In this document: piece after piece, positions 512 through 39,000 of the stretch
Position numbering within the stretch: the stretch's first letter is position 1
Layout: every line of letters begins with the position of its first letter
Source of the DNA: Pocillopora damicornis
Taxonomy: Eukaryota
Reading direction: 5' to 3'
DNA: 64,000 nucleotides
Assembly (NCBI RefSeq): GCF_003704095.1
Contig: NW_020845359.1
Coordinates: 1 to 64,000, forward strand
Translations under genes and position numbers: made by a program
Notes under the pieces: model-generated
The model's input: only the letters and a program-made list of their open reading frames with translations
Told to the model about the DNA's origin: nothing
Databases searched by the model: none

Positions 512-31276
<30,765 letters not shown>

Positions 31277-33122: not shown

Positions 33123-33645
33123 TGACTATGACTATGACTATGACTATGACTATGACTATGACTATGACTATGACTANNNNNNNNNNNNNNNNNNNNNNNN
33201 NNNNNNNNNNNNNNNNNNNNNNNNNNNNNNNNNNNNNNNNNNNNNNNNNNNNNNNNNNNNNNNNNNNNNNNNNNNNNNNNNNNNNNNNNNNNNNNNNNNN
33301 NNNNNNNNNNNNNNNNNNNNNNNNNNNNNNNNNNNNNNNNNNNNNNNNNNNNNNNNNNNNNNNNNNNNNNNNNNNNNNNNNNNNNNNNNNNNNNNNNNNN
33401 NNNNNNNNNNNNNNNNNNNNNNNNNNNNNNNNNNNNNNNNNNNNNNNNNNNNNNNNNNNNNNNNNNNNNNNNNNNNNNNNNNNNNNNNNNNNNNNNNNNN
33501 NNNNNNNNNNNNNNNNNNNNNNNNNNNNNNNNNNNNNNNNNNNNNNNNNNNNNNNNNNNNNNNNNNNNNNNNNNNNNNNNNNNNNNNNNNNTATGACTAT
33601 GACTATGACTATGACTATGACTATGACTATGACTATGACTATGAC
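33123..33645. repeat. (GACTAT)n hexamer microsatellite spanning an assembly gap
   Basis: Perfect GACTAT runs on both sides of a ~415-N gap. Confidence 0.95.
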
Positions 33646-33649
33646 CGAT

Positions 33650-36052
33650 ACTGGTAGTCTAACTGTCATGAAGCATATATCATCTGATATGTACCTCTTG
33701 TCAGTGTTTGCTGCGAAAGCGATCTTATTTATAATCTGAGTGAACATTTCATTCTTTTTCGAGTTATACAGTTCATCTAACGAAGTTGAACTTCTTCTGT
33801 CCAGAAAGTATTCTTGACGTCTCTGAAACGAGGTGAGTCACCTGCATGTGAACTGCCATAAGATTCTCATCGAAGATTTTGGTGACCGATTGCCTGTTCT
33901 GTCTGATAACTCTCATGACCACTTTATTCCGTATATTCTCCATTGTCTTTCCAAATACTGAGATGCCTTTCATAAGCCTGTAGAAGTCTTTTTCAAAATC
34001 TGATTTGGCACCAGTTCTGAGTTTTGTGTTCAAGTAGATGTAAGGTTTTAACCGGGCATATGGTTTGAGCTTGAATTCTCGATGAATCATCTTAAACTTC
34101 ATCCCAAAATGTGTGTAATTCTTCAAGTTTCTAGAGTGAAGCACACACTTCTCTTTAAAATGAAAGTTCGGGATGAGCTTTTCAACTCTGTCAGTAATCA
34201 ATCTCTTAGGAGCTAATAGATAGTCATTGTGAAGACTAGATGAAGATGGTCAGGATATTCAAGATCAACTTCAAGCATAAATCCAACGTCCGAGTCAGGA
34301 TCTGCAAAGTCTTTCCAATTCTCAAATTCTGCGGGAGCATCCATCCATTCGAGATAAAGAGGTCGAAAGTTTTTACTCATTCTCTATCAGTGCAGATCCT
34401 TTGCATCGAGATACGTGATGAAAGTGCTTTCTTCCTCAGGGTTGAAGTCTTTCATATACTTAGTATTCGCCTTTGCATGTCTCTTTGAAATCATTGAAAC
34501 TCATCTTGGATTCTTTTTTCAAACATCAAAATCCCCATGTCAGGGTCTGTTAGAAGATAGAGAAATACTCCCGTCTTCTTAAGAGCTATGTCCTAAGTTA
34601 AACTGATGCTATGAAATACCATGCTAAATAGAGCTTTTAGTTTTTCATGCAAACCTTTCTGAAGTTTTGAAAAACATCTGCGAGGGTAAGAACATAAACA
34701 GAGGTAAAGATCGTAGTGGAGTGCCATCGTTTGCATCCAAATTTCTTCCAAACCTCTTGAGCGTGTTTGTAGTCTTCGTCAGTGATGTGTTCATTATTAA
34801 GCTTTGAAAAGAAATCTTCCTTTGGTGGCAGGTGTGTGGCTTCCATCTTCTTGAGTGAATCAAATTAATCATATGGAAACACTCCTTTCCTCGACATCTT
34901 ATTTATATTATCAATGTACTTGTTGAGGTGACAAATGTCATCTTTGTGGAGATTAGAAACGAGGGTGGCGGAGAGATGGCTGCATGAATCTGAGGCTGTC
35001 AAATTTCACATATTAATCGACTTCACTTCTCCATCTTTTTCAATCTTACTAAATCTGTCAACAACTATCTTTGTAAAAGATATGTAGTTTTCTTCAGTTT
35101 TCGCTATGCAGAAATATGTCACTTTGTGGTTTTGACGCTTCTTGTCCACTAGTTTTTTAACTATTCCGATATCGAACCCGATGGTTTTCTTGATTTCATC
35201 TAAACAACCTTTCAGAAGTTCGTCTTTTCCTTCTTCAACGTCGTCTTTATGTATTACGAGACCATCAAAAACAAGGCATGCTATCTTACGTTATTTTTCT
35301 CAAGATATTTGCACATGATAAGTGATTGATTTGAAGATCACACATGATGTGATTCAGAACTGATCCTCTTATATTATGATAATTCTCTCCCTTTGTTTCC
35401 TTCGCCTTTGAAACTAACTATGGGTTGAATTTTATCATTTTCGTTTCAATTTTTTTCATCTCTCTCGTGTATTTGATGAACCAATCGGGATCAGTTTTCT
35501 TCTCCACTCTCTGTCTTCCATTTACTAATGCTTATAGTTCTTTCTTTGCATCTCTTTCCTCATTTGAAAATTATCCATAAATGATTTCAGCATCTCTTCG
35601 TGATTCTCTAGGTAATCATTCAACATCGGAGCCAACAATCGTGGATTTCCTTGTTTCTTGTGAAATTGTGTCTCACCTTCCTTCTTACTCCTTGAAGTGA
35701 TGAACAATCAGCAAAATATCTTCTTTTCCTCTTTTTTGTTTGTGACTGTGTGTTCTCCTTTTTCATTGAGCCCTCCAAGATATAGTTTTAATCTTGTTAT
35801 TTCTCCTCCATAATCCTAAACTTTTACAAATCAAAGTTTTTAAATTCTCAACGATGTATTGAGCTTTTCTTTGTCTACTTTCTCTGGTAATCTAATTTTT
35901 CTCTCCTCAGGTTTTCCCGATCCCAACTCCTGTTCGACATCATAATGTTCGCCAAGTTTCTTGATGTGAGCATTATAACTCAAGAGGTTATGAAAGATGA
36001 CAGGAATTGTTATGGGCCTTGAATTTTAGATCACAACGGTTGTGGGCCGCAG
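33650..36052 (-). pseudogene. Polinton/adintovirus-type family B DNA polymerase (pPolB), frameshifted, 5' end cut by a LINE
   Basis: AAHNRCDLKF, IPVIFHNLLSYNAH, CIAKTEENYISFTK, FDSLRFM, LPPKEDFFSKLN..DEDYKHAQEVW, LKPYIYLNTKLRTGAKSDFEKDFYRLM..SVFGKTMENIR, TDKRYISDD. Confidence 0.9.
35115..35950 (-). pseudogene. Family-A-like (TVpol-type) polymerase domain nested inside pPolB
   Basis: LPEKVDKEKLNYIVE; RYFADCSSLQGVRRKVRH; LNDYLENHEEML; RDAKKELxALVNG; GSVLNHIMCD; ACLVFDGLVI..TIGFDIGIVKK. Both junctions read in frame with the PolB motifs. Confidence 0.65.
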
Positions 36053-39000
36053 CTGGCAATCTTTAATCGCCTTGGCGACTCTCAAAGCAAATTTCGTAAC
36101 GGGCGCTTTACGAAGGTCTGCTTCGTTACCGGATGTCTTCACGCAATCTACGTGCGAGTATTTTGCTCATAAAAAACAAGATTAAAGTCTTGGTTTGATA
36201 GATGTTATGCCTGAATCATCTTCGTTGCCGGCCAACGACAGTCATGACAGGAATGACTCCAACTTAAAGCATAGTACTTTCGAGAGAAAGGACGAGATGG
36301 TGCCTTTAACTGAGAAAGAAATTAGGAGTCTAACCATTCCAGCACTGAAAGACGAACTTGCTAAAAGGAATCTATCAAAAAAGGGAAACAAACAAACTTT
36401 GGTCTCCCGATTGAAGTCATCTTTTCAAAGTACCCGCCAGAAAACGAGTGCAGTTTCTGATCAAACGGATACTTCGCTACTGTATAAGGCAAGAGACGAA
36501 ACCAACAACTTAGAGAATTGCCCATGCTTACCACTTCTATTAGATTTACAGAATGAAGTGAAAGAGCTAATTCTTCGCGGCAAATTTTGCCTAACCTGAC
36601 TTTTAATTGTGAGCTGACAAAGCTTCAAGATGAGAACAACGCCTTAAAACAGAGACTTCATGACGTGGAAGACCCCTACTACTCTTTACAGTGGGGGGGG
36701 GGGTGGGGGAACAGGGAGGTCAGAGTCTCCCGCTTCCCGTACCACGTTCTCCCGCCTCCCGTACTTTTGTGCCCCTTTACCTCCCGACTCCCGCCCTTCA
36801 TTGTGTTGCTCCCGTCTTCAGGTTAATCAAGAGGATCAGAGACCTGGGTTTAACTTTCAAACTGTGCCGAAACTTAACATTCTTTTTCATTTTCTGGCCT
36901 TTGTTTTGGCAGGGGGATCGTTGGTTCCTGATGAAAGTTACTACAGGTCAGTTTTCTTAATTAAACTAAGTTTCACTAACCGGGTTATCACAGTTTGACC
37001 GTCGCTGCTGACATCTCGTTATAGAGACGAAAGTTTCAGTTCACTGTGTAAAGTAATAGCTATTACTATTTCAAAATCGAATTTTAAAAAAAACAAGAGG
37101 CAGACGTAATGTTTAGAGTTTGCTTCGCCTGTATCCGTGCTTGCTTTCCCTTTTTGACGTAAGTAACTAGTCGTAGCGAGTACATCAATCGTTGAACCGT
37201 TTGCATTTTGAGCGTTCAGTTTAAGTGCTAGTGAAGCATGATTGAACATTCTTGTTCGACTGATTATCAGATTTGTTCGATAGGTTGAAATCTTCTTTAA
37301 ACCTCTGCGGAAAGTTTTAAGGTTAGAAGAAGTCTTCCATGCCGCGCCGGGAAGACCACACTGAACTCTTCCAACTCCAAATTTTGATTAGAGCCTCTTC
37401 TTCCGCCGAGTCAAGATAACTTCTCGATTTTCTTCAGTTTCATCTGTTTTCAAATCACATTCGCCTCAACAGTCTGAAAGCATCTTGCGAATGTTTCTTC
37501 AGAGAGTTCGAAGCGCCAGTTTAATAATCGAGTGAAAATTGGGGCTGACAAGCCTACACGACTTCGTAGTACGTCAAATTTTCTGTATACTTGTTACAAG
37601 TGTTAAAGGCTCACACGGCTCCAAAGGATGTCGGTTTTCTTGCCTTCGTTATAATTTTGCTCTCACGAGTATATCTTTGAGTGGACGCCCCTTTCTGTAT
37701 GATACTTTAAGTCGTTCCAGAGCGGGCGGTGTCTGGTATCAAGAGGTTGAAATCTTTTTTAAACTCCTGCAGAGAATTTTAATGTTAGAAGAAGTCTTCT
37801 ATGCGCCGGGAAGGCCGCCCTGACCTCTTCCTTCCCCAAATTTTGGTTATAGCCTCTTCTTCCTCTGGGTCAACATAACATCCTTGATTTTCTTTAGTTT
37901 CATTTTTTTCCAAATCACATTCACTTCGGCAGTCTGAAAGGACCTGGCAAAGTCTTTCTTCAGTTAGCTCTAAACGACCGTTTAATAATCGTATCGAATC
38001 TTTACCAATTTCACAAATAACTCCACTTTTCTTGCATTTTGCTTCTTCGCTAGATGTTTCGAAGAGAAAAGAACTATTATCTATGATGATGATGCGTCTA
38101 TCTTACGTGAAATGAAGATGAGAAAAAGTTGGATTTGGATTGAATGCGTAAATTTCAGTATATGATGACTGATACGTTTTGTGATCATGTCCAGGCAAGG
38201 GCACGGGCTTTACATCGCTTCTATAGCTATTGCCTGATGGATGCATTGATGTATCTGCCTCCTTTTCAGAACTCACGGCCTTAAAAAACTCCTGTATTGA
38301 TGTGAGAGCTTGTTCCTCGGTGCTGTCGTTCGCATCCGCCGAAGTGTACATATAGAAGGGGAGAGTGCCAGCTTTGTCGTGAAAGAATTTCGCACGGACT
38401 GTTGCCTGACCCCTCGTTCAAATTAATTTCTCCAATCGTTAAGGCGTTTTATGTCCTCCTTATTCAGGAACGTAGTTGCCTCTTGTGGCACCGGGAGCAA
38501 GTCTTAGTACTTGATTGAAAACTGTGATGGTAGCTCATAGTGTTGTTTCTCCCGAGTGAAGCAAATATATCCAGGCCAGGCAATTCTCTTTAGGGTCTCA
38601 TCTGCTGCCTCGACACAGTTCATCGCACAAACCAGCACAGTGGGTGTGTCTGTCACCTGTCGCATTTCACCATTGAAATACTCGTTAACGAGTGTAAGAA
38701 ACGTTCTTACATCAAAAACTTCGAGCAGATGAGGACATTCCTTACTTAATCGTGTTCAGAGGCGATGAAGGAAGTTCTTGATGAAAGTTACTGAGGTGAC
38801 CGTCTTCTCAGCTGGGGTTCCATGAGGCCTTTGCATCGTTCCAGAAACTTTAAACTTGGCCTTGACGTTTTGAAGTATCTGCATTAGGGTTTTTCTGCTT
38901 TCTCAATGCGTTGCTCGGCTTTTAAGAGAGATGGCAACTCGGCACGACATAGAATGTCAGAATGAAGGCACGATAAATGTCTTCCATTACTCTGATATAC

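Follow-up and report, generated by a model that had tools for sequence, protein, structure and literature searches.

Polintons of animals encode a recurrent two-polymerase chimera, in which a family-A-like TV-Pol domain lies inside a protein-primed family-B polymerase (pPolB), and we are highly confident that this chimera is both real and recurrent. Both modules are known; apparently new is that a family-A polymerase is nested in a family-B polymerase, and this occurs at three sites. The copy in the window (the whole 64-kb stretch of Pocillopora damicornis DNA that was analysed) is dead, and the evidence for the chimera comes from its junctions, from a diverged copy in the same genome and from unbroken relatives elsewhere. 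The nested TV-Pol accounts for a region of ~270 residues left unannotated by Pfam and PHROGs.

The polymerase relic in the window

A protein-primed Polinton PolB has left a 2.4-kb relic on the minus strand of the window (~36062-33680), which is classed as a decayed pPolB of the adintovirus beta-like group 1 (33680-36062) by PolB profile matches and by its identity to the insert-free PolB of L099 (39-54% over the pieces). L099 is a near-complete Polinton with an rve integrase, an A32 ATPase and a DJR (double-jelly-roll) capsid. Neither the 64-kb window nor 26 kb around a second copy, C2597, had a match to any other gene of L099-L105, so the relic is limited to 2.4 kb and classed by PolB homology alone. 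Among whole elements, L099 and L100, both near-complete, insert-free and from IMG/VR, come nearest to the insert carriers (62-66% identity in the polymerase part).

Read along the minus strand, the relic begins with the N-side of the PolB exonuclease (36062-35951), colinear with the C2597 copy (L041), where the tail of an endonuclease-VII-type region is followed by the ExoII motif with its helix and by the upstream junction. The nested TV-Pol domain, at what we call site B, occupies 35914-35138 and is recognised by profile, frameshift-aware alignment, the fold of the homologue P0046 and its place in the tree. Across the downstream junction (35137-34898) the frame is open, and a short linker leads to the restart of the PolB exonuclease at 35110. 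A broken ExoIII region (34897-34607; PolB profile positions 2-99, iE 2e-35) and the broken palm and fingers with motifs A and B (34500-33827; profile positions 135-382) follow. A C-terminal remnant (33810-33679; iE 4e-4) lies past a large deletion that removed profile positions ~383-523, motif C included. The N-terminal TP/vOTU/ExoI region is missing as well; the group-1 pPolB features that are kept are the ExoII, ExoIII, Pol A and Pol B regions, and those lost are ExoI, the N-terminus and Pol C.

A hexanucleotide microsatellite flanking an N gap comes directly after the relic (~33123-33650), a SAP-domain ORF on the plus strand (36186-36599; Pfam E 6e-10), probably another mobile element, adjoins its truncated start, and a fragmented RVT_1 reverse transcriptase (18798-20808, minus strand; E 3e-10) marks a retroelement relic.

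The TV-Pol domain (~270 codons) is placed just past exonuclease motif II. An earlier note on this DNA, made from the letters and their reading frames, had put ~280 codons between the two flanking exonuclease motifs, and a hand count likewise gives 280 between 35951, where the ExoII helix ends, and the Cys of the PolB restart at 35110. Counted by hand from the ExoII Phe to the next conserved exonuclease motif, the distance in the window is 302 codons, compared with 35, 29 and 31 residues in the insert-free Polinton PolBs of L099, L100 and L101. Both junction peptides lie in open minus-strand pieces (35843-36025 and 35009-35290) of the same nominal frame, which agrees with the junctions having been described as unbroken; the further statement that the domain is nested in frame holds for the net frame but not for the middle, which has at least four frame breaks and two stops.

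Contigs from all four DNA runs cover the region, some of these runs possibly being the source of the assembly, and single contigs of three of them (X2, X5 and X16) reach across both junctions and hardly differ. In the RNA runs, insert and PolB are each covered in places by short, scattered contigs, which are not evidence of expression, and none of these contigs bridges a junction with 31 letters on both sides.

Identity of the nested domain

A TV-Pol profile built solely from 58 unbroken database TV-Pol domains, none of them from the coral's own genome, matches the window from 35914 to 35138 in three frames (positions 8-297 of 309; best piece iE 1e-19). Frameshift-aware alignment gave the insert a score of 150, whereas five shuffles scored 19-22. 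The alignment locates frame breaks near 35648, 35550, 35332 and 35285 and more of them in the first third; stops fall near 35532 and 35418, confirming that the copy is decayed. The thumb, Arg hairpin, fingers and motif C are recognisable, and motif A is deleted, as had been suspected, through a 9-column gap near 35656. Motif A is kept in both other TV-Pol copies of the genome (L037 and L002), and among the database TV-Pol domains, nested and free, motif A is present in 56 and motif C in 57 of the 58. Unbroken homologues have both catalytic aspartates (motifs A and C), the Arg hairpin and the RxxxK fingers motif, and show the TV-Pol features listed in the available text of Iyer et al. (PMC2579912).

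The fold was read from a model of the natural homologue P0046, to which the window insert is tied by the profile. In this model, made from 17 sequences, the insert (~227-516) mostly reaches pLDDT 85-95 and matches the Klenow fragment with Z 15.6 (rmsd 4.5, 274 residues aligned). The top 19 rows of the fold search are all PolA-superfamily enzymes, and the best Foldseek match in the viral library is the Zamilon replication protein (E 8e-19). Sequence searches against Pfam, PHROGs and PDB did not recognise the insert, and an Atlas search gave a weak lead to a PolA cluster (score 0.83). By its profile match and the predicted fold of its homologue, the insert is a TV-Pol/PolA-fold domain, as the earlier note had proposed; the fold comparison that it suggested as a check returned PolA enzymes. 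Two of its analogies need amending. A likeness to Tlr1-type elements does not hold, since Tlr1-type helicases have a pPolB-derived palm, not PolA, according to the accessible part of PMC11161782. As for the fusion to helicases, the nearest relatives found here carry a UL9-like SF2 helicase. The primase or second-strand role suggested in the note is putative.

Other copies in the same genome

At least three TV-Pol matches are present in the coral genome, and all three copies are broken. The copy on C2597 (G000:C2597; L037/L041) has 65-79% DNA identity to the window copy and has both junctions in common with it. Its order is also that of the window, with an endonuclease-VII-type motif, ExoII, TV-Pol, linker and PolB restart at the same Cys; its TV-Pol has an intact motif A, and it keeps the N-terminal PolB region. 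Since a diverged copy carries the insert at an identical position, the chimera is not a one-off recombinant, and the earlier thought that the junctions might be unique to this locus is thus answered. When the window is compared with C2597, the nested domain has a dN/dS of 0.38 over 218 codons (bootstrap 95% CI 0.24-0.57), near the 0.30 of PolB, which argues for purifying selection on the nested domain. Given a single insertion at site B, the domain was under purifying selection while nested; neutral decay came later. The shared junctions and the selection together support the earlier claim of an ancestral two-polymerase chimera, as opposed to a local accident.

The copy on G000:C2641 comprises the motif A-to-C half of TV-Pol followed by a fibre-like gene. 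The end of TV-Pol runs into Polinton fibre-like sequence, not PolB, both there (L018:5550-6400) and in protein P0034, which is named from Mytilus coruscus; this junction reflects either parallel deletions or a further fusion type.

The genome has 32 PolB matches, and 13 stretches were taken around the best ones. Among the other PolB copies with a judgeable exonuclease region, five of six are insert-free: in five copies with both ExoII and the start of ExoIII, 243-323 bases lie between the two, with no insert.

Three insertion sites among relatives

Protein searches with single short pieces or with a small alignment (A1) gave no long homologues, and a search with profile A4 gave 28 longer proteins, which were classed by eye. 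In twelve of these (P0035, P0036, P0038, P0039, P0040, P0042 and P0044-P0049), TV-Pol lies at site C, which follows the conserved exonuclease strand downstream of ExoII and precedes the opening motif of ExoIII. At site A the domain precedes ExoI of a VSR-type group-2 pPolB; P0033 and P0028 have it there, and P0037 belongs to their group. The site-B matches are five broken proteins that nearly duplicate the C2597 element and are not independent. Of the remaining eight, three are fragments and five are of helicase type: two with a UL9-like SF2 helicase, two SF3-like and one unclassified. P0007 represents a further element with the site-B downstream linker. P0046 and P0057 come from a clam-symbiont MAG, and their sequence is probably host DNA.

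Unbroken carriers exist at two of the sites: P0033 (1693 aa, site A), P0038 (1559 aa, site C) and its cluster mate P0056 (1585 aa). Read by eye, all three have Exo I-III, Pol A-C and the TV-Pol motifs, and P0038 and P0056 also have an N-terminal TP and vOTU with complete Exo/Pol motifs. The protein-search matches include no unbroken site-B protein, so that intact PolB ORFs with such an insert, which the earlier note had proposed to look for, were found at sites A and C and not at its own site. That note covered one site, and related inserts are now seen at two further pPolB positions. Three different positions imply that insertion or relocation happened at least three times.

Among 51 loci on viral and metagenome contigs, nine are site-C PolBs, 10 are SF2 fusions, 20 are SF3-like fusions and 12 are unclassified; TV-Pol nested in pPolB without a helicase is thus found in the window and in nine of the 51. 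Identical motifs bound the TV-Pol module at each of the three sites and in the helicase fusions. All seven viral-contig PolBs compared are insert-free, and no carrier was confirmed when viral contigs were scanned with P0033, P0044 and the site-B pieces. No carrier was found beside capsid genes in the loci and proteins examined. The length of the loop after ExoII differs between insert-free PolBs. A Cys-rich, zinc-finger-like segment precedes the site-C TV-Pol in the P0038/P0056 lineage only (~590-640 of P0038).

An intein was considered and rejected: reading by eye showed neither a splicing (Hint) domain nor the terminal residues of an intein (N-terminal Cys/Ser, C-terminal His-Asn before Cys/Ser/Thr) at the three sites, no intein family came up when the carriers were scanned with Pfam, and the Cys at the downstream junction in the window is PolB's own conserved residue.

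Phylogeny and divergence

For the TV-Pol tree, 58 rows were reduced to 40 at 95% identity, and two site-B rows with X at the breaks were added. Nested and SF2-fused domains share a clade (100/99) from which the SF3-like set is separate. Within this clade, site B (100/99) is sister to site A (89/95), and site C is a group of its own (99/98); a single origin of all nested domains is neither supported nor excluded (32/76), and sites B and C together give an AU p of 0.15. The nested domains are 38-48% identical to P0051, a PolA-SF2 fusion. Ten contigs (L049, L050, L056-L061, L043 and L054) encode fusions of ~1010-1090 aa between TV-Pol and a UL9-like SF2 helicase, and one of them, L058, also has an A32-type ATPase. 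These contigs likely represent a group of polinton-like viruses and the donor pool.

The tree of the PolB ExoIII-polymerase region has 31 rows, L027 and L029 being left out and seven rows being less than half filled. The site-B pair (100/98) lies inside a 100/99 clade together with some site-C carriers and insert-free PolBs. A single PolB clade of site-C carriers is rejected (AU p 6e-5), with insert-free PolBs interleaved, and site C would need losses or lateral movement besides insertion. Such a distribution, over three sites in two pPolB groups, could also be explained if TV-Pol were a selfish, non-splicing mobile domain that spread among pPolB genes by recombination or by collaborative homing with the endonuclease of the same gene (endoVII/HNH or VSR), its activity being kept to copy its own locus into breaks. 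This is the main rival explanation, and we consider it rather unlikely. Homing of this kind has been proposed hypothetically for whole PolA/AEP genes (10.64898/2026.10.13.758929, in the portion accessible), and carriers with an intact N-side do have an endoVII-type or VSR nuclease, but insert-free PolBs have the nuclease too. The insertion sites fall in variable loops rather than in conserved motifs, and by eye the junctions show no intein ends.

The divergence data bear on the same question. At site C, synonymous divergence of the insert is lower than that of the downstream PolB in all seven pairs compared (P < 0.02 in six), and GC3 is 0.45-0.49 in the insert against 0.33-0.40 in the downstream PolB, both in favour of a selfish domain; these pairs are, however, not independent, and an ancient gain followed by losses fits the tree equally well. 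Region by region, the site-C genes are mosaic throughout, with no tract centred on the insert: the N-terminus is as low as the insert in one pair and the flanks are in another. A clean homing tract at site C is thus unsupported, the mosaicism being general, and recombination between Polinton PolB lineages (L062, L066 and L086) is, as judged from these sequences, frequent. The site-B pair shows no difference in synonymous divergence between insert and PolB. Synonymous divergence varies about two-fold along the site-C PolB genes of L062, L066 and L086. For the nested domain at site C, dN/dS is 0.18-0.25 in five of seven pairs and 0.39 and 0.74 in the other two.

Possible origin and role of the nested polymerase

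The preferred explanation is an ancestral protein with two working polymerases, for which we see about an even chance, with TV-Pol predicted to be an accessory enzyme, tethered to pPolB, for priming, re-priming or gap filling on the single strand that pPolB displaces. TV-Pol would have been captured from the helicase-fused PolA-SF2 replicases of co-infecting polinton-like viruses, would have lost its helicase at capture and would have landed in variable surface loops of pPolB at least three times, the PolB tether then replacing its helicase partner. End priming by the terminal protein would go on, and the simplest benefit would be a tethered second polymerase at work on the displaced strand or at stalled forks. 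Against this explanation, the carriers keep the N-terminal TP/vOTU region, so protein priming is not replaced, and most pPolBs are insert-free, so the insert is dispensable.

In the model of P0044, a site-C carrier without ExoI, the TV-Pol and PolB polymerase domains both fold with good confidence. The exonuclease half upstream of the insert has pLDDT under 50 in the P0046 and P0044 models alike, and proofreading around the insert is putative in the carriers, that part of the models being of low confidence. TV-Pols are predicted primase-polymerases in the available text of PMC2579912. The sole one reported to have been tested biochemically, CCPol of the SCCmec pair CCPol-MP, is an active polymerase that primes only with its ssDNA-binding partner MP and alone just extends primers (PMC7581432, sections available). 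By analogy, this would count against de novo priming, no MP-like partner being known for the carriers.

The behaviour of CCPol by itself would also suit an accessory polymerase for lesion bypass or end repair, comparable to other small PolA enzymes and with no priming role, as would the purifying selection on the nested domain and the presence of Pol theta (Z 14.2) and Pol nu (Z 12.8) among the top folds of P0046, though these matches reflect the shared PolA fold. The donor context is primase-like, with the domain N-terminal to a helicase partner, and a repair role appears quite improbable. A chance recombination product or assembly artefact without function is largely refuted and very improbable: all three copies in the genome are broken and C2641 runs from insert into fibre-like gene, but a diverged copy has the same junctions, dN/dS is below 1, unbroken chimeras exist elsewhere and independent contigs pass over the junctions.

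Taken at its fullest, the two-polymerase explanation is that marine-invertebrate Polintons repeatedly captured a PolA-family primase-polymerase into PolB loops. The resulting single chain, with two active and unrelated polymerases besides terminal protein, protease-like domain, nuclease and proofreading exonuclease, would protein-prime the ends and prime internally, TV-Pol being a mobile non-splicing domain. We regard this full version as plausible, if slightly short of an even chance. The unbroken P0033, P0038 and P0056 make it testable whether the TV-Pols of eukaryotic viruses prime DNA, and whether Polintons replicate by internal priming besides terminal proteins.

Comparison with known systems

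The literature, in the portions available, describes pPolBs with inserted nucleases, fusions of the pPolB-helicase, PolA-SF3 and, rarely, PolA-SF2 kinds, and genomes that encode two replicases in separate genes (PMC11161782, PMC8502044, 10.1101/2023.08.22.554363, PMC13215967, 10.1101/2024.03.25.586562, 10.64898/2026.06.19.733378, PMC12721341). A PolA nested in pPolB was not found in the passages of the published texts searched, and a term look-up in the accessible text of PMC11131425 returned no mention of PolA, TVpol or primase. To this extent the view that the architecture is undescribed stands. In Preplasmiviricota, pPolB and PolA-helicase have been described, in the sources as available, as alternative and mutually replacing replicases; chimeras with pPolB and PolA in one chain may be intermediates of such swapping.

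The carriers have the same host protein, TP-vOTU-Exo-Pol, as group 1 of Polinton/Maverick pPolB. Polinton pPolB is known to take HNH and VSR nuclease insertions at differing positions (Jeong et al., 10.1101/2023.08.22.554363; Krupovic et al., PMC11161782; available parts of both). Those known insertions are nucleases, whereas the carriers have, within the exonuclease or next to it, a ~270-aa polymerase from a different family. The TV-Pol/PolA-SF3 replicase of Sputnik and Zamilon virophages and of polinton-like viruses agrees with the insert in domain, motifs and fold; the virophage protein has a helicase, while the carriers lack one and have the domain nested in another polymerase. According to the text available from Iyer et al. 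(PMC2579912), TV-Pols are linked to a D5/SF3 helicase or stand alone and are never fused to nucleases; against that rule, the TV-Pols of the carriers lie within a proofreading exonuclease. CCPol, likened to the insert from its description in the sections available, is bacterial, stand-alone and MP-dependent.

The nearest relatives of the nested domain, sharing its 100/99 clade, are the PolA-SF2 (UL9-like) fusions, two instances of which are noted in polisuviruses in the accessible portion of 10.64898/2026.10.13.758929. There the domain is N-terminal to the helicase, whereas in the carriers it is inside pPolB. Fusions of pPolB with an SF1 helicase (Tlr1-like; OmPLV, PMC12721341, as far as available) are likewise replicase chimeras of Preplasmiviricota. 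They join one polymerase and a helicase end to end, while the carriers reported here hold two polymerases, one nested in the other.
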